Shown in pieces: positions 3,654-53,657 of a stretch of 64,000 bases of DNA. Made by a program: the position numbers and the translations under genes. The stretch lies in the sequence record MH051913; one strand, given 5' to 3'. This DNA is from Enterobacteria phage vB_EcoM_IME281. The notes under the pieces are model-generated. The model searched no databases. It had not been told where the DNA came from and saw nothing but the letters and a program-made list of their open reading frames with translations. How positions within the stretch are numbered: position 1 is the stretch's first letter; every line of letters begins with the position of its first letter.

Positions 3654-5213
3654 TTAGATACCTTTAACATATACGCGACGGAAGTAACCATTCAGACCGA
3701 GGCTGTTAACGATGTCAGGCATACCGCTCTGAATACGTTTGGTAGGAGCCTGTGCAGACGGGTCAGCGAACGGGTTGATACCGATACCGTAACGAGTTTT
3801 GAAGCCCATTACCGGTTGGAAGTTCTTCGGATCGGAACCACGCAGCGGGGTCAGTGCAACGTACGGAGCATAGTAGATACCTGCGTCCATTTCGTTAGCG
3901 CCTTTATAACCGATGGTGAAGTAATCGGAACGTGCATACTGGTCGATGTAAACGCGATATTTACCACCAAGAACACCGGCAAATACTGCTTTGGTTGTGT
4001 CAACGTTGAAACCTTGACCCAGACCTTGAGCTGCATAACTTACAGAAGTATCAACTGCAGCCAGTACGTTAACTACGTTACGGGAAGCGATGATGAAGTT
4101 ACCAGCACCACGACCGGTCTGACGAGCGATTTCGGCTGCTTCTTTATCAATCTGGAACAGAAGGGCTTTAAAGCTCTCACCGGCCCAACGAGCACCACGG
4201 ATATCAATCGGGTCCTGGAAGTCAAACACACCAGCTTTAGCGCCAACGGTGTTGGTCATACCAGATTTACCAACCTGTGCAGAGTAGTTAATCCAATCGA
4301 TAACTTCACGGTTGATTTCGAGCATAATTTCGGTAGCAAGGATACCGGACAGTTCAGCATCTGCATCCATACCGTGTACTGCACGAAGGTCCTGTGCCAG
4401 TTCGATAGAGTAGCTTGCTTTCAGCTGACGGGATTTAGCTTCGATAACTTGTTTGTCGATGCGGAAGCCCATTTCGTTCCACGGGTTATCGGTAGAACCG
4501 TTAAAGCCTTCCTGAAGTTCAGCGATAGAAGTAGCCATACCTTCAGCCAATTCAGCCAACTTACCAGCTTCAATCAAAGCGGTAACAGCAGCATCCAGTT
4601 TAGCGGCATCAGTAGCAGCAGCATCAACGGTTACGGCTTCAACAGCCTGGAAGTGTGCAGCACCGGTAGCTTCGAAGAAGTGAGAATAAATTTTACCAAC
4701 TTCCAGAACTTTGCTTGCAGCCAGTGCTTCGAAAGATTCAGCAGCACCCTGACCAGAGAACATAGAGTCTGGAGAATACATCGGATGGAAAGCTTCTTTA
4801 GCGCCAGAAGCGATAGGGTCTTTACCATAAACTGCACGAAGGGCAAATACCTGGCCGGTAGGGTTATTCAGAGGCTGAACACCACAAATATCAAAAGCAA
4901 TCAGATGAGGAATAGCACGACGAACCATACCCATTACTGCCGGCCCAATCTGAGTTACAGCACCAGAAGTCTGGCCAGCTGCGATATTGGTAGCATCATA
5001 ACCGTGGTCACCACCAATTTCAGCTTCGGTCAGGAAAGAACCAAATGCTTCAGAGATTTTTTCATCACGATATTCCGGAGCAGTCAGGATGTCTTGTTCC
5101 TGGTTTTCGAAAATTTTAGCGATGATAGCTTGTTTAGAAGCACCCACGATTTCAGGAAGGGCTTCGTTTTCCAGCAGAGCGGACCATTTTTGAACTAATG
5201 CATTCTTTTTCAT
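3654..5213 (-). CDS. 23: gp23 major capsid protein
   Basis: 519 aa; long near-identical stretches to recalled T4 gp23 (…NPWNEMGFRIDKQVIEAKSRQLKA.YSIELAQDLRAVHGMDADAELSGILATEIMLEINREV…). Confidence 0.95.
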   Translation of the reverse strand: MKKNALVQKWSALLENEALPEIVGASKQAIIAKIFENQEQDILTAPEYRDEKISEAFGSFLTEAEIGGDHGYDATNIAAGQTSGAVTQIGPAVMGMVRRAIPHLIAFDICGVQPLNNPTGQVFALRAVYGKDPIASGAKEAFHPMYSPDSMFSGQGAAESFEALAASKVLEVGKIYSHFFEATGAAHFQAVEAVTVDAAATDAAKLDAAVTALIEAGKLAELAEGMATSIAELQEGFNGSTDNPWNEMGFRIDKQVIEAKSRQLKASYSIELAQDLRAVHGMDADAELSGILATEIMLEINREVIDWINYSAQVGKSGMTNTVGAKAGVFDFQDPIDIRGARWAGESFKALLFQIDKEAAEIARQTGRGAGNFIIASRNVVNVLAAVDTSVSYAAQGLGQGFNVDTTKAVFAGVLGGKYRVYIDQYARSDYFTIGYKGANEMDAGIYYAPYVALTPLRGSDPKNFQPVMGFKTRYGIGINPFADPSAQAPTKRIQSGMPDIVNSLGLNGYFRRVYVKGI

Positions 5214-5234
5214 GTGTTGTATAACCTTATTAAA

Positions 5235-6050
5235 TTAAGAAATTCGTGATGCTGCGATTGCAGACAGGTCCGCGAAGGACAGGGTAGGCTTAGCGCCTTT
5301 TTCTTCAACTGCTTCTGAAATGTAATTCAGTGCCGCAGCATCGTCTACATTTTTATTTATAGCGGCTTCGGTGATTGGGTTTCCAACGTCAGACTGACCT
5401 TTAACCATTTCAACAATAGCGCCAATTTTTTTACCGAATGCATCGGAATAATCCATGCCTTCTACCAGAGAACTGACTTTTTCTTTTTGAGATTCGGTCA
5501 GGTCTTTAGTTGCTTCCGTAACAGCAACTTCACGCTGTACGTAATTAATATACGCATCGCGCATACCAACTTCTTCGAACAGACGAGCGGTTTCATCTTT
5601 CTGCTCTTGGAGCTCTTCTTCCATTTCAGCAACAACATCTACTGCTTCTTCTGGAACAACCACATTGTGTTCAACAAACAGTTCTTTCATACCCATCAAC
5701 ATGGATTCGAACAGTTCGGCTTTAATACCTTTATCAACAGCCAGCTGGTTTTCAGCCATCCATTCTTTAGCAACGTGGTCAAGGAAACGACCGGCAGCTT
5801 CTTGGATTTTCTTATCGGCTTTTTCTTCAGCTTCTTCTTTATTTTTCTCGACTTCTTCTTCCGCTTTTTCAGCGATTTTAGCGATGTGAGATTCAGCCAG
5901 TTTCACGGCGTGTTGCTTGACGGTAGCTTCGAATACAGTGCCGAAAGTTTCTTTTGCTTCCGGAGAAATATTAACTGATTCGAAAATACTGTCAAGAGCA
6001 ACGGAAGCATCAATATTCTGTGCTTCGGCGATCAGTTGTTCTTTAAGCAT
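5235..6050 (-). CDS. 22: gp22 prohead core scaffold protein
   Basis: 271 aa, acidic/coiled-coil, position between gp21 and gp23. Confidence 0.85.
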   Translation of the reverse strand: MLKEQLIAEAQNIDASVALDSIFESVNISPEAKETFGTVFEATVKQHAVKLAESHIAKIAEKAEEEVEKNKEEAEEKADKKIQEAAGRFLDHVAKEWMAENQLAVDKGIKAELFESMLMGMKELFVEHNVVVPEEAVDVVAEMEEELQEQKDETARLFEEVGMRDAYINYVQREVAVTEATKDLTESQKEKVSSLVEGMDYSDAFGKKIGAIVEMVKGQSDVGNPITEAAINKNVDDAAALNYISEAVEEKGAKPTLSFADLSAIAASRIS

Positions 6051-6077
6051 TTTGTAGTCCTGTTGTTTAGATAATAA

Positions 6078-6085
6078 TATTTATA
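6078..6085 (-). promoter_or_regulatory. Late promoter box TATAAATA upstream of gp22 (overlaps gp21 stop)
   Basis: Plus-strand TATTTATA about 28 nt upstream of the gp22 start. Confidence 0.55.
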
Positions 6086-6716
6086 ACGCTTTTTTCATGG
6101 CCTCTGCGAGAGCCATAAAGGCGTCATCGGCACTGGTATCGGTTTCTACCGTTTGTGATTCTGTAATTTGCTTCGGAGTTACATAAGCATCAGGAGCAGA
6201 TGGTCCCCATACTGCATCAACACCGACGGTTAATTTATAACCTTCGTTTACACGCTTATATCCTTTATTGGTTTCAGTTAAAGAACCAAGACCGCGAGAA
6301 CTAACACCAGGAACCCAGCCAGCTCGGATATTTGCAGCTAGTTTATCACCCGGGCCATGGTCACCTTCGATGATACGTGCACGTCCATAAACATCATTAC
6401 CTTTCCACCACATATCTTCAATAATGATAGCAGCTTGCATAGGGTCAACGTTAGCACGAGGTGGGTGGTTTAATTCTCCTAAAGCTTGTTTAGTAGCAAC
6501 CTGTTCTGCCATATAATCGGCAACGGCTTTTTCCAAAATAGGTTTTGGGTAAAGGCGTTTATTACGGTTAACTACCTCTGCTTGCATGAAAATGCCTTCT
6601 ATATAAAGGCCGGGAGCAAGCCCAGAATTTTTTCCATCATGAGATTCCAACATAGGAACCCCATCGATAATTTCACCTGGTTGTCCCCAATGTTCGATGA
6701 GCAATTCAGGTTTCAT
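6081..6716 (-). CDS. 21: gp21 prohead core scaffold protein and protease
   Basis: 211 aa; conserved position and size versus T4 gp21. Confidence 0.88.
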   Translation of the reverse strand: MKPELLIEHWGQPGEIIDGVPMLESHDGKNSGLAPGLYIEGIFMQAEVVNRNKRLYPKPILEKAVADYMAEQVATKQALGELNHPPRANVDPMQAAIIIEDMWWKGNDVYGRARIIEGDHGPGDKLAANIRAGWVPGVSSRGLGSLTETNKGYKRVNEGYKLTVGVDAVWGPSAPDAYVTPKQITESQTVETDTSADDAFMALAEAMKKAL

Positions 6717-7144
6717 TAGTTAAGTCCAAAAGCTTTACGTTTAGAACGGGCTTTCTTACGCTTACGTTCGGCACGTACTTGAGTAGACGGATTAGCACGT
6801 TTGGTTTTAGATGCTTTACGAGCAATCTGACGGCGTTTTGCTTTAGATAAACCTGTCGTTTGGAACGCATTACGTTGACGGGTTTTAATATCTTTAGTAC
6901 GAGTAAGCTCACCTTTAGAGGAAACGTGTTTAACGATAAATTCGTTAAGAGCCATTGATTCATTTAAAGAACCAAGAGCGATAGCACATTCGATATCGCC
7001 TTCAGCAATCATGTTCTCTACAAGATTATTTATATCGCTTTTCTCGAGCGCTTCAGAAAGAGCAGCAAAACGTCCCTGTGCTTCTGGAATTTTGGCCTCT
7101 ACGCTTTCTAGAGTTAATTCGTAATCATCAGGGATAAGGAACAT
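6716..7144 (-). CDS. 68: gp68 prohead core protein
   Basis: 142 aa, basic C-terminus; synteny 20-67-68-21. Confidence 0.7.
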
Positions 7145-7389
7145 TATTCATCGTCCTCGTCATCATCCGCATCGTCAGATTCTTTTTTGTCTTTCTTATC
7201 TGCTTTATCGGATTTTTCGTCGTCTTCGTCATCTTCGTCAGCTTCTTCGCCTTCAATCATAACGGAGCGAGCAATTTCTGCTTTACGGGCTTCAATCAAA
7301 GCGGTTACTCGAGATTCGATAAGCGGGGCTGCTGCTTTACGAACTGCTACGAGGTCGTTTGATTTAATAGCTTCGATTAAATCTTCCAT
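7144..7389 (-). CDS. 67: gp67 prohead core protein
   Basis: 81 aa with poly-acidic C-terminus (…[34 protein letters not shown]); synteny. Confidence 0.75.
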
Positions 7390-8963
7390 TAGAAATCCTC
7401 TTCTTCTTCATCTGGGTTTTGGAAACGAGCCTCTTTAGACTCTTCTTCAATTTGCTTAGCTTCTTGATTAATTTCTTCGTCGGTCATTTGGAGGAAATCT
7501 TTCATAGCCGTTTGATGTGAAATATACTTACCAATAAATGGTTCAGCCATCGTTAGCATATTGATTCTGCGTTCCATGATTTCAGCATCTTTCATTTCAC
7601 TGAAATAGCTATCACGGTTAAACGTAACTTTAATATTATTTATTTCCTTTTCCCACTCATCTTCTGTAATAATCTTTTTAAGAATGAGGTTTGTTTTTAA
7701 CGGGTCTAGGAAAATTTCTTCAAATTTGTTTTGTAGTTGACGAATCCATTTAGAGAATTTTAATTCGTCACGAGTGATTGCTGTACCGGCATCAAACATA
7801 ACACCAGAATTAGACTCGCTAGGGATACGTGATTCAGGAACACGCAACGCACGGTAAAGTGCTGTGCGGAAATAAAGAACGTCATCCATATCACTCATAC
7901 CAGTAGCACCTGGCATTGTATCAACTTCTGTTACCGCTTTACCATCACGACGTTGCAACCAATAGTCTTCAGTCATGGACATATTGTGTTGTTGGTTTTT
8001 AATTTTACCTGTCGAAGCATCATACACCACACGGTTTTTCATCGTGTTCATGATATGTTGCATTTGTGCTGCAGCCTTACGTGAAGGCATATTACCTGTA
8101 TCGATATAAAACACACGACGGTCAGGAGCACGTGTAATACGGTAGATGACCATTGCGTCTTCCATCAATTTAAGCTGGTTTGCAGGCTTAATAGCACGTT
8201 GCAAATAGCCAATGATGTTTTTACCACAACAATCTAATAATCCAGAATGAGCATAAACCACTGCAGCACGAGGAATTTTAACTTTAGTCCCGGCTGAATA
8301 AATGCGTCCGTCAGCGCAATAACTTTCATGGCCTGTATCATAAACGAAAAACTCGCGATATCCGTCTACAACTTTAACGCCATCTTCCATACGTGTAACG
8401 ATTTCACGAATATATTGGACTTGGCGTGGGTCTAAGCGACGAAGCTCTTGTACGCCATCTTTCATTTTTTTAGGGTTTATAATTTTATGAAAGAAAATTC
8501 TTGAGTCTACATACCAGCGTTGGAAATGGTCAGTACCTTTACGTTGGAAATTTAAAAGGTTTAAAACTTCACTGAATTCGGCCAAGATTTTATCTTTAAT
8601 TGCTTGACTAAATTCTGTCCCGTCTAAATTCAATGCAACTACTTCTTTATCATCCTCATAGACAATAGCGTCAGACACAATTTCCTGTACGGCGTTGTCG
8701 ACTTCATAGTTGTTCATTAAATTACGGTAGGTATCAATAAGTTCCCTGGTATTTTTAACTTCAGGCTCATTACTACCAAACATCTGTTGCATAAGAGCAT
8801 TATAAGGAATATTTTGCTCTTGTGTCTCAATTTCGCGAGCGCCATCATCAAGCTTAGGTGCGGTGACAGACTCTAAATTGTTATTAATTTGTTGTTTATA
8901 TTCTTTTTCGTCTTCATTAGCCCATGGCTTAAGAAAACTTAATATTGTATTAAAGTTTGCCAT
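7389..8963 (-). CDS. 20: gp20 portal vertex protein
   Basis: 524 aa; synteny and size match T4 gp20. Confidence 0.9.
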
Positions 8964-51199: not shown

Positions 51200-51247
51200 G
51201 TTTACATCTCCTGTAGACGTGGTACTATAGACCTATCAACTACAGGA
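51200..51247 (+). promoter_or_regulatory. PeSL-like early promoter cassette (stem ctcctgtag/ctacaggag)
   Basis: gtttacatctcctgtagacgtggtactatagacctatcaactacaggag. Confidence 0.65.
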
Positions 51248-51256
51248 GATTACAAA

Positions 51257-51715
51257 ATGTCAGAAATTAATTCAGAAGTATTCATCCGCCGCAACAAATT
51301 ACGTCGTCAGTTCGAAACCGAATTTCGTGAACTTAACGCGTCCATCAAAAAAGCCGCCATTAAGAGCGGTGTCCCAGCTTTCTTTATTAAGTACTCTAAT
51401 CACTTGTTGGACCGTGCTATCCAACGTGAAATTGACGAAAAATATGTTTTCTCTTTGTTCAAGAAGCTCCATAACCATGTTAAAGAAATCCATGAATTTT
51501 TAATCCAGGAGCCTCTTCCTGACATAGAATCTGAAATTGTCCCAGGTAAAGTGTATCGTCCACTGCGTCTCGAGATTACTGATAAAACCTTATGGTTGGG
51601 TATGACCGTAGATCGTAAACATCCTGATAAAGGATATTCATTAAAATGTCGTATGGCATTTGTTAACTCTAAACGTTTAGAAGGTAAAACCAGCACGAAA
51701 GTAATCTATCTTTAA
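51257..51715 (+). CDS. regB: RegB-like endoribonuclease
   Basis: 152 aa; EVFIRRNKLRR.FE.EFR…LLDRAIQREIDE.YVF…RLEITD…LWLG…CRMA matches recalled T4 RegB. Confidence 0.75.
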   Translation: MSEINSEVFIRRNKLRRQFETEFRELNASIKKAAIKSGVPAFFIKYSNHLLDRAIQREIDEKYVFSLFKKLHNHVKEIHEFLIQEPLPDIESEIVPGKVYRPLRLEITDKTLWLGMTVDRKHPDKGYSLKCRMAFVNSKRLEGKTSTKVIYL

Positions 51716-51727
51716 TAATGAGGTCTC

Positions 51728-52267
51728 ATGAAAAAAGTATTAGCCACTTTACTATTGACAGTTAGTATGTCTGCCTATAGCGTAGAGCCTACTTTCAGTA
51801 ATGAACAACTCGATAATTTACATTATGCGTATGCTTTCGGTGAACAATACCAAAAGTCGGGAAAGTTCAAAGAAAACCCTAATCAAAAAGGATTAGGATA
51901 TATAATGGCCGGATTATTATGGCAGGAATCATCTGCTGGAATTAATCAAGGTTTAAATAAAGATAAGCACCATGCTTATGGCATGTTCCAAAATTACTTG
52001 CCTACGTTAAGAAGTCGTGTTAAACAGGTAGGTTGGAAGATGTCAGACAAAGAAATAATCCGTATGGTCCAAAAACGACAGAACAGTGCCTCTTGGGCCT
52101 ACATTGAGCTGTCTTATTGGATTGATGTTCACAAAGGTGACCTGAGAAAAGCGATTGCTTCTTATAATGCGGGCTGGAATGTCAAAGCAGGCAGTAAATA
52201 TGCTTCCGAAGTTCTAGAAAAGGCCAATTACCTAAAATCTAAAAAGATGTTTGAGGCGGTGTATTAA
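51728..52267 (+). CDS. Secreted protein with lytic-transglycosylase-like motifs
   Basis: Signal peptide MKKVLATLLLTVSMSAYS; ES…GMFQ…AYNAG motif order. Confidence 0.5.
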   Translation: MKKVLATLLLTVSMSAYSVEPTFSNEQLDNLHYAYAFGEQYQKSGKFKENPNQKGLGYIMAGLLWQESSAGINQGLNKDKHHAYGMFQNYLPTLRSRVKQVGWKMSDKEIIRMVQKRQNSASWAYIELSYWIDVHKGDLRKAIASYNAGWNVKAGSKYASEVLEKANYLKSKKMFEAVY

Positions 52268-52624
52268 ATGATTAAGCAGATGACTATAGCGCTTATGTTG
52301 ATTGCTCCGGGAGTATTAGCGTCACAAGTTGATGATAGTAATAATTCAATTGTCGAGTATGCTACCCGTACAGCAAAAGATTATTGTCATCCGAGTAATA
52401 CTGAATGCATTATCGAATTCAGTTCAAAAATCACAGCTGCTTTTAAAGATGGCCAGAATGACGTAGAGCATCGCCGAATGAAAGAGAAAACTCTTTCTAA
52501 AAGATACGAGCAACGTCTAAACGTTACTGAATGTATTCCATCTGATAAAAAGTACAAAGAAATGTGCGCGTCTATGGTAGACAGACTCGTTGATTCATAC
52601 AATCGAGGATTAAATTCTAAATGA
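52268..52624 (+). CDS. Secreted Cys-containing small protein
   Basis: Signal-peptide-like MIKQMTIALMLIAPGVLAS; four Cys. Confidence 0.45.
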   Translation: MIKQMTIALMLIAPGVLASQVDDSNNSIVEYATRTAKDYCHPSNTECIIEFSSKITAAFKDGQNDVEHRRMKEKTLSKRYEQRLNVTECIPSDKKYKEMCASMVDRLVDSYNRGLNSK

Positions 52625-53100
52625 TTATTGATTATATTAAGGGCGATATTGTCGCCCTATTTCTCCAAGGTAATATTATTGCACACGGGTGCAACTGTTT
52701 CCACACAATGGGTTCTGGCGTAGCCGGACAGTTGGCAAAGGCTTATCCAAAAGTTTTAGAAATAGATAAAACCTCTACTGAATATGGTTCTCGTGATAAA
52801 TTAGGCAATATGTCTATTGTTTTTAAACATAAGCCTACAGGTTTTGGCATGTGCTATAACTTGTATACGCAATACGAACCAGGCCCTAATCTTGATTATG
52901 GCGCTTTAGTAAATTGTATGATAGAATTAAATCTACAAGCAGAAACCCTTTTGTTTAAACCAAGAATTTATATCCCTCGCATTGGTTGTGGTATTGCAGG
53001 TGGAGATTGGGAAAAGGTTTCTAAATTAATCAACATGTTTACTCCTGACATTGATCTGATAGTGGTGGATTATGAAAGCCCATTACCCGCATCCGTTTGA
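52621..53100 (+). CDS. Macro-domain protein, Poa1p-like (candidate ADP-ribose / ADP-ribose-1''-phosphate processing enzyme)
   Basis: 159 aa; IIAHGCNCFHTMGSGVAGQLAKAYPK resembles the Poa1p signature [21 protein letters not shown]..YPKA (from memory). Confidence 0.55.
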   Translation: MIIDYIKGDIVALFLQGNIIAHGCNCFHTMGSGVAGQLAKAYPKVLEIDKTSTEYGSRDKLGNMSIVFKHKPTGFGMCYNLYTQYEPGPNLDYGALVNCMIELNLQAETLLFKPRIYIPRIGCGIAGGDWEKVSKLINMFTPDIDLIVVDYESPLPASV

Positions 53101-53284
53101 CCCTAAAAACAAAGCGGAAATTATTCGACGCTGGACCGAAACTCGAGTAACTAAATGTCCTATAAAAAGTCAACACAACACCGATAAATGGTATATTGGC
53201 GAATATGTTGAATATACTTTTATAGATAAAAATAAACGTAAACAGCACGTAGAAGAATATTGCTTAAAGGTACAATGGTTATGA
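53072..53284 (+). CDS. Hypothetical protein (overlaps 3' end of the macro-domain gene)
   Basis: 70 aa. Confidence 0.35.
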   Translation: MKAHYPHPFDPKNKAEIIRRWTETRVTKCPIKSQHNTDKWYIGEYVEYTFIDKNKRKQHVEEYCLKVQWL

Positions 53285-53487
53285 GCCAAGCCCGAATTCT
53301 TAAAACGGCTAAATGTGAAAAATGCGAATGGCCAGTAATCGCAGCTTTATGCAACGATGAAATGGAATGTGAATTTGATTACTGGTGGTACTGTTCTAAT
53401 AAAGGATGTTCTAATCATAAGGGTGAAGGTTTTCATTCTGGTTATTGTGAACATCCTAAATTTGTGCGATATGGTGAACCTAAATGA
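53275..53487 (+). CDS. Cys-rich (zinc-finger-like) small protein
   Basis: CEKCEW…CNDEMEC…CSNKGC…CEH. Confidence 0.45.
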   Translation: MVMSQARILKTAKCEKCEWPVIAALCNDEMECEFDYWWYCSNKGCSNHKGEGFHSGYCEHPKFVRYGEPK

Positions 53488-53657
53488 GTTTGAGTAAAGA
53501 ACAAAAAGATAAATTGTTTGAGCTTATCCATGAGCTCATGGAACTTAATACAGAATGTGAATTTGATAACTCTCTAGACTGGGATTGGCATGCTGGTGAA
53601 GAAGATGAGTTTTCTAAAAAGGAAAATGAATTAATTGCTTATGTAAATAGTCTTTAA
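53484..53657 (+). CDS. Small acidic hypothetical protein (57 aa, below ORF-track cutoff)
   Basis: ATGA-coupled ORF filling the gap before tk. Confidence 0.35.
   Translation: MSLSKEQKDKLFELIHELMELNTECEFDNSLDWDWHAGEEDEFSKKENELIAYVNSL

Follow-up and report, generated by a model that had tools for sequence, protein, structure and literature searches.

The window analysed here, a 64,000-nucleotide stretch of DNA from Enterobacteria phage vB_EcoM_IME281 (sequence record MH051913), contains tk.4, which encodes a 159-residue protein and stands in the tightly packed plus-strand gene order regB-vs.1-vs-tk.4-tk.3-tk (Table 1). The surroundings (3.1 kb at tk.4) are 93–96% identical to Dhakavirus genomes, including JS98, JS10, dhaeg and MN04, and the source phage is a Dhakavirus, a JS98-like relative of T4. 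The arrangement in T4 is alike, namely vs.4-regB-vs.1-vs-tk.4-tk.3-...-tk. A first-pass annotation made from the sequence alone had described the tk.4 product as a Poa1p-like macro-domain protein encoded after regB and two secreted proteins. The open reading frame (ORF) and the quoted stretch, residues 19–44 (IIAHGCNCFHTMGSGVAGQLAKAYPK), are exact, and the gene order is right, with vs.1 and vs, whose products have signal-peptide-like N-termini, lying between regB and tk.4.

A chance ORF is excluded for tk.4 by its Pfam and PHROG matches (PHROG 335, E 1.9e-71) and by its many homologues. The protein is 92% identical to JS98 Tk.4 and 55% identical to T4 Tk.4 over the full length without gaps (E 7e-68). 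Similarity and genomic position together place it in the T4 Tk.4/AdfM orthologous group, given the 55% identity, the neighbours vs and tk.3 and the PHROG 335 match. Of 50,697 phage records, 2761 carry a homologue; T4-like and FelixO1-like phages are represented, as are Pseudomonas, Vibrio, Acinetobacter and other phages. A large protein collection contains homologues in 752 clusters. The JS98 counterpart is annotated as tk.4, 'phosphatase; contains A1pp phosphatase motif', and GenBank labels on other orthologues include 'macro domain protein', 'Poa1p-like family protein' and 'putative O-acetyl-ADP-ribose deacetylase'. In a search with a hidden Markov model (HMM) of the family, tk.4 was the sole match in the window (E 1e-67), and no second macrodomain was found there. 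Both the macrodomain nature of the protein and its assignment as the tk.4 orthologue are virtually certain. This is an ordinary finding: the tk.4 gene is already on record as encoding a macro domain, and the anti-DarTG2 role of the T4 version joined that record in late 2025; the gene described here is one more orthologue of a named, widespread counter-defence factor.

A bacterial macrodomain of the Tk.4 type was also observed on the chromosome of Pelagimonas phthalicica (positions 6001–6459 of the segment analysed), 41% identical to the window protein. Its examined neighbourhood encodes a peptidase M23, a Trp halogenase and a redoxin, with no toxin, prophage or ADP-ribosyltransferase (ART) genes. 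This ordinary chromosomal setting indicates that the Tk.4 family is not confined to phages.

Profile and structure searches both bear out the macro domain proposed at first pass. Residues 22–136 match the Pfam Macro profile PF01661 with 32.1 bits against a gathering cut-off of 22 bits (E 1.2e-7). An AlphaFold2 model built from an alignment of 59 Tk.4 homologues displays the three-layer alpha/beta/alpha macro fold, with a mean predicted local distance difference test score (pLDDT) of 94.4, falling to about 70 over the last ~7 residues, and a predicted template modelling score (pTM) of 0.89. The top structures retrieved with this model by Foldseek from the PDB were TARG1, BT1257, Poa1p and DarG, the same set that PDB sequence searches return. 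Sequence and predicted structure thus agree that Tk.4 belongs to the Poa1p/TARG1/DarG (ALC1-like) group of macrodomains. In NCBIfam and PADLOC, the only matches for Tk.4 are to DarG, and these are confined to the macrodomain part. The DarG2 equivalog NF048014 scores 28.9 bits, far below its 250-bit cut-off, because Tk.4 is only 159 residues long and lacks the DarG C-terminal domain; positions 1–138 of the 338 in the profile are covered.

To characterize the active site, residue conservation was counted in an alignment of 121 Tk.4 family members, and the columns were compared with a reference alignment comprising SCO6735, BT1257, TARG1, two DarG macrodomains, PhiKZ gp104 (sequence printed in PMC13309987) and Poa1p, whose reference sequence was checked and is 100% identical to PDB 6lfq. 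H22, G23, N25, C26, G33, A35, N80, Y82, Q84, P119, G122, G124 and W130 are invariant wherever aligned. N25 falls in the column of SCO6735 Asn27 and of the Asn that DarG and PhiKZ AdfM conserve, and H22 in that of Poa1p H23. Q84 stands where TARG1 (K84), DarG (K80) and PhiKZ AdfM (FPTK) have their catalytic Lys, a position held by Gln in SCO6735 (Q85) and BT1257 and by Ser in Poa1p. The glycine-rich loop, PRIGCGIAGGDW, probably corresponds to the diphosphate-binding loop of macrodomains, and is nearly identical to PRIGCGLAGGxW of SCO6735 and BT1257; within it, G127/G128 align with SCO6735 G128, and A126 stands where TARG1 has D125 and Poa1p F152. Together with the H/N pocket, this conserved loop suggests that Tk.4 would bind ADP-ribose. 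The site that in SCO6735 carries a long mobile loop is occupied in Tk.4 by a short, Lys-free QYEPGPN. By these residues, the Tk.4 family classifies as a Gln-type ALC1-like macrodomain, set apart from DarG, from PhiKZ AdfM and from the long-loop SCO6735 subclass. A crude neighbour-joining tree, indicative only, places the Tk.4 clade closer to SCO6735, BT1257 and Poa1p than to the Lys-type DarG, PhiKZ AdfM and TARG1. Its placement is distinct from each reference type, so that a mechanism cannot be copied from any single one of them.

Tk.4 shares with Poa1p both the ALC1-like group and the H-x-C-N-C motif. The match to a phosphatase specifically of the Poa1p type is less good: of the residues probed in the Poa1p structures (H23, S30 and F152), H23 is paired with the invariant H22, but F152 is replaced by A126, and the Ser that Poa1p has at the catalytic Lys position is replaced by Q84. 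The same residues bear on whether Tk.4 is an enzyme of small-molecule ADP-ribose metabolites, a phosphatase of ADP-ribose-1''-phosphate or a deacetylase of O-acetyl-ADP-ribose, with substrates arising for instance in tRNA repair or in sirtuin reactions. The existing labels, 'phosphatase, A1pp motif' and Poa1p, would favour such a role, but they are homology transfers rather than tests. Poa1p F152 has become Ala, and the Poa1p S30 column holds T29, a variable position (T in 71 of 121 sequences). Moreover, the sole known phenotype of an orthologue concerns DarTG2. A metabolite activity is therefore an unlikely selected function, although it may exist as a side activity.

Genetic evidence on function comes from T4. 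In the HIDEN-SEQ preprint (bioRxiv 10.1101/2025.11.20.689424), tk.4 was the only T4 gene whose transposon hit was significant on a host expressing DarTG2, and a clean tk.4 knockout rendered T4 DarTG2-sensitive, which lends support to the earlier suggestion that the protein reverses DarT-like ADP-ribosylation. The authors renamed the gene adfM and proposed that its product enzymatically removes ADP-ribose from DNA. An additional anti-DarTG2 factor had been predicted, since T4 lacking both adfA and adfN was still DarTG2-resistant (PMC11825919). Biochemical evidence is available for two other macrodomains. In vitro, PhiKZ gp104, also named AdfM, frees an oligonucleotide of the ADP-ribose added by DarT2; it also neutralises the toxicity of DarT2, and its activity is reduced by N23A, a substitution of the conserved Asn (PMC13309987). 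SCO6735 efficiently cleaves the thymidine-linked ADP-ribose made by DarT on single-stranded DNA (ssDNA); its Q85A variant is inactive and N27S nearly so, and in the proposed mechanism catalysis is started by a water that the backbone holds, with the Gln positioning the distal ribose (PMC9411070). The long Lys-bearing mobile loop of SCO6735 has been proposed to serve in DNA binding.

Both E. coli studies found T5 to be DarTG2-sensitive. As a small consistency check, no ALC1-like macrodomain was detected in the whole T5 genome by tblastn and the family HMM run without filters. Two T5 products encoded at 6548–8195 of the T5 segment were noted in passing: a Sir2-family protein, T5.102, and T5.105, also annotated 'Sir2', whose DxDGV start looks more like a HAD-type phosphatase than a sirtuin and in which these searches detected no macrodomain. 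In Streptomyces phage Annadreamy (segment 2327–3471), gp152 is a macrodomain close to the SCO6735/BT1257 type (E 2.6e-47 to PDB 5e3b) and begins directly where gp151, annotated Sir2, ends; the pair recalls the bacterial SirTM-macrodomain operons of reversible ADP-ribosylation.

Taken together, we consider it likely that the selected function of Tk.4 is the enzymatic reversal of DNA ADP-ribosylation by DarT2. In this model, the Dhakavirus tk.4/adfM product would be a small, early-expressed, single-domain macrodomain enzyme. Host DarT2 would ADP-ribosylate thymidines in TNTC motifs of ssDNA during infection; Tk.4 would bind the ADP-ribose moiety through the glycine-rich loop (P119–W130) and the H22/N25 pocket and hydrolyse the ribose–thymine bond, restoring replicable DNA. 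In line with the mechanism proposed for SCO6735, Q84, held by N25, would probably orient the distal ribose so that an activated water can attack it. For this Dhakavirus we infer the same anti-DarT2 role as in T4, with Tk.4 acting as an enzyme that takes ADP-ribose off DNA by means of Q84 and N25.

Several points weigh against this interpretation. The T4 knockout result comes from a preprint and concerns a protein only 55% identical to this one, from a phage that is not a Dhakavirus. Tk.4 lacks both the catalytic Lys of DarG and the long Lys-bearing mobile loop of SCO6735, so the DNA activity is not simply transferable from either enzyme. Macrodomains of this class, furthermore, typically act on several substrates. 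Finally, catalytically dead SCO6735 still inhibits DarT by binding (PMC9411070), which means that protection by Tk.4 need not be purely enzymatic.

This last point raises the alternative that protection is mainly non-enzymatic, with Tk.4 binding and inhibiting DarT2 or shielding ADP-ribosylated DNA. Three dead variants, SCO6735 Q85A, DarG K80A and TARG1 K84A, inhibit DarT in vitro, SCO6735 most strongly (PMC9411070), and Tk.4 lacks the canonical catalytic Lys. Yet more than 119 diverse homologues, among them proteins from bacterial chromosomes without a DarT neighbour, all keep Q84, N25, H22 and the glycine loop, and this strict invariance argues for a conserved catalytic pocket. The C-terminal domain with which DarG binds DarT is also absent, the NCBIfam match ending at profile position 138. 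A mainly non-enzymatic role is accordingly quite unlikely.

The range of substrates accepted by related enzymes suggests another alternative, in which Tk.4 erases ADP-ribose from protein or RNA, such as marks left by the phage enzymes Alt, ModA and ModB or by other host toxins. TARG1 and SCO6735 also remove Glu/Asp-linked ADP-ribose from proteins. However, arginine-linked ADP-ribose is a substrate of ARH-type hydrolases and is not known to be one of macrodomains, which counts against this role. T4-like phages do encode ADP-ribosyltransferases, but arginine-linked ADP-ribose is what Alt, ModA and ModB make (PMC8120803). Neither a phenotype of this kind nor an ART gene in genomic linkage with tk.4 was observed, and we regard this function as improbable. 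The first-pass annotation had also mentioned degradation of ADP-ribose-derived immune signals and servicing of the phage's own ADP-ribosyltransferases, and this analysis found support for neither. That Tk.4 degrades or sequesters such signals, for example those of Thoeris, appears highly improbable.

Table 1 Features of the tk.4 locus in the window
Feature	Position	Strand	Basis or remark
vs.4 (Acb2), 92 aa	50916-51194	+	Pfam Acb2_Tad1_hairpin, E 3.5e-16
Early-promoter-like element, T4 type, before regB	51200-51228	+	GTTTAC-N17-TGGTACTAT
regB	51257-51715	+	Pfam REGB_T4, E 2.2e-69
vs.1	51728-52267	+	12 nt after regB
vs	52268-52624	+	Abuts vs.1
tk.4 (adfM) CDS, single macrodomain, 159 aa	52621-53100	+	ATG 52621, TGA 53098-53100; ORF list
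ATGA overlap, vs stop/tk.4 start	52621-52624	+	Sequence
Macro domain core, residues 22-136	52684-53028	+	Pfam PF01661
HGCNC motif (H22, G23, C24, N25, C26)	52684-52698	+	H22, G23, N25, C26 invariant 119/119
NLYTQ motif	52858-52872	+	N80, Y82, Q84 invariant 121/121
Glycine-rich loop PRIGCGIAGGDW	52975-53010	+	P119, G122, G124, W130 invariant
tk.4 3' end/tk.3 (DUF7202) start overlap, 29 nt	53072-53100	+	ORF list
Three small ORFs between tk.4 and tk	53072-53657	+	tk.3 DUF7202, orf102 equivalent Phage_zn_bind, tk.2 DUF7438

The early-promoter-like element before regB aligns with T4 GTTTAC...TGGTATAAT, GTTTAC and TGGTA..AT being kept in T4 and JS98, and it is the probable start of a transcript running from regB through vs.1, vs and tk.4 to tk. 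A consensus scan found no terminator-like plus-strand site between this element and tk.4, and early co-transcription of tk.4 is plausible on the sequence. In addition, the ATGA overlap suggests that translation of tk.4 is coupled to that of vs. A generic promoter and terminator scan of the 49.5–55 kb region returned hits at chance level (17 versus 15.3 and 5 versus 3.9 in shuffled sequences), and the regB-proximal site, conserved with T4, is the only one used from the promoter scan. An Rfam scan of 49–56 kb gave no match, nor did NCBIfam on the six ORFs neighbouring tk.4.

Several observations on the neighbouring genes deserve mention in their own right. The vs.4 product is Acb2, a cyclic-nucleotide sponge that counters CBASS, and its gene lies directly upstream of the regB promoter-like element, so that two counter-defence genes, Acb2 and Tk.4/AdfM, stand less than 2 kb apart. 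The signal-peptide-like N-termini, recognized by eye on the sequence, read MKKVLATLLLTVSMSAYS in Vs.1, MIKQMTIALMLIAPGVLAS in Vs and MTKILVLCIGLISFSASASA in T4 Vs (5387–5734, minus strand, in the T4 segment analysed). The textbook label of the vs product is 'valyl-tRNA synthetase modifier', with which such an N-terminus is hard to square if Vs is exported. Vs had no Pfam or NCBIfam match, and Vs.1 gave only a sub-threshold match to an SLT transglycosylase (E 0.004). In the HIDEN-SEQ study, vs was needed in minimal medium (bioRxiv 10.1101/2025.11.20.689424). Between tk.4 and tk, the three small ORFs fall into recent Pfam families (DUF7202, Phage_zn_bind and DUF7438) whose function is unassigned.

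Among known systems, T4 Tk.4, named AdfM for anti-DarT factor, macrodomain, is the closest counterpart. It is an orthologue of the same length class and the same vs/tk.3 position and has H22, N25, Q84 and W130 in common with the window protein. Nevertheless, 45% of the residues differ, the window protein is 4 residues longer at its C-terminus, and tk.4 overlaps tk.3 by 29 nt here and by 4 nt in T4. In the glycine loop, T4 Tk.4 (4926–5390, minus strand, in the T4 segment analysed) reads IGAGIGKGNW, whereas the consensus IGCGIAGGDW is found here and in the majority of the family; the two varied positions are Ala in 108 and Gly in 113 of the 121 family sequences. With this deviant loop, T4 Tk.4, the one studied by experiment, is not the family's most typical representative.

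Bacterial and eukaryotic macrodomains resemble Tk.4 in different respects. SCO6735 from Streptomyces coelicolor and BT1257 from Bacteroides thetaiotaomicron are Gln-type ALC1-like proteins like Tk.4, but identity is just 26–31%, and Tk.4 has HGCNC and NxYTQ where they have HVCND and NMIGQ. The combination said to mark the SCO6735 subclass, Gln with the Asn27 equivalent and the Gly128 loop (PMC9411070), is present in Tk.4 as Q84, N25 and G127/G128. The mobile loop that defines this subclass, 5 residues longer than in DarG and TARG1 and bearing Lys89 and Lys94, is not. Yeast Poa1p, an ADP-ribose-1''-phosphate phosphatase, and human TARG1/OARD1 belong to the same ALC1-like fold group. Poa1p HSCNC and Tk.4 HGCNC have H-x-C-N-C in common, and TARG1 shares the PxIGxG...W loop, while the position of Q84 is Ser in Poa1p and Lys in TARG1. 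An assignment as a TARG1/OARD1 orthologue was rejected, the Lys84/Asp125 dyad being replaced by Q84/A126. So was an assignment as a DarG antitoxin proper, which fails on the catalytic Lys (K80 in Thermus aquaticus DarG), on the C-terminal DarT-binding domain and on the adjacent darT, Tk.4 having vs and tk.3 as its neighbours instead.

The most consequential comparison is that with the Lys-type erasers. The DarG2 macrodomain and PhiKZ gp104 AdfM are only ~20–22% identical to the window protein and carry the catalytic Lys in FPTK, where Tk.4 has YTQ. Because the T4 and PhiKZ types share only ~20% identity and differ in Gln versus catalytic Lys, the name AdfM covers two distant lineages, and the biochemistry of PhiKZ AdfM and DarG should not be assumed for the T4 type. 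A tentative but serious possibility is that T4-type AdfM represents a lineage recruited separately from the PhiKZ/DarG type, with a design of its own that combines an invariant Gln, a short loop as in DarG and TARG1, and a Poa1p-like H-x-C-N-C motif. If so, macrodomain erasers of DarT2 marks would have arisen in phages by convergence on two or more occasions, and the Tk.4 type may differ in mechanism or substrates, accepting, for example, protein- or RNA-linked ADP-ribose besides thymidine-linked ADP-ribose (dT-ADPr). For annotation, 'phosphatase' and 'hypothetical protein' on tk.4 orthologues could give way to 'AdfM-like macrodomain, probable DNA ADP-ribosylglycohydrolase (anti-DarT2)'.
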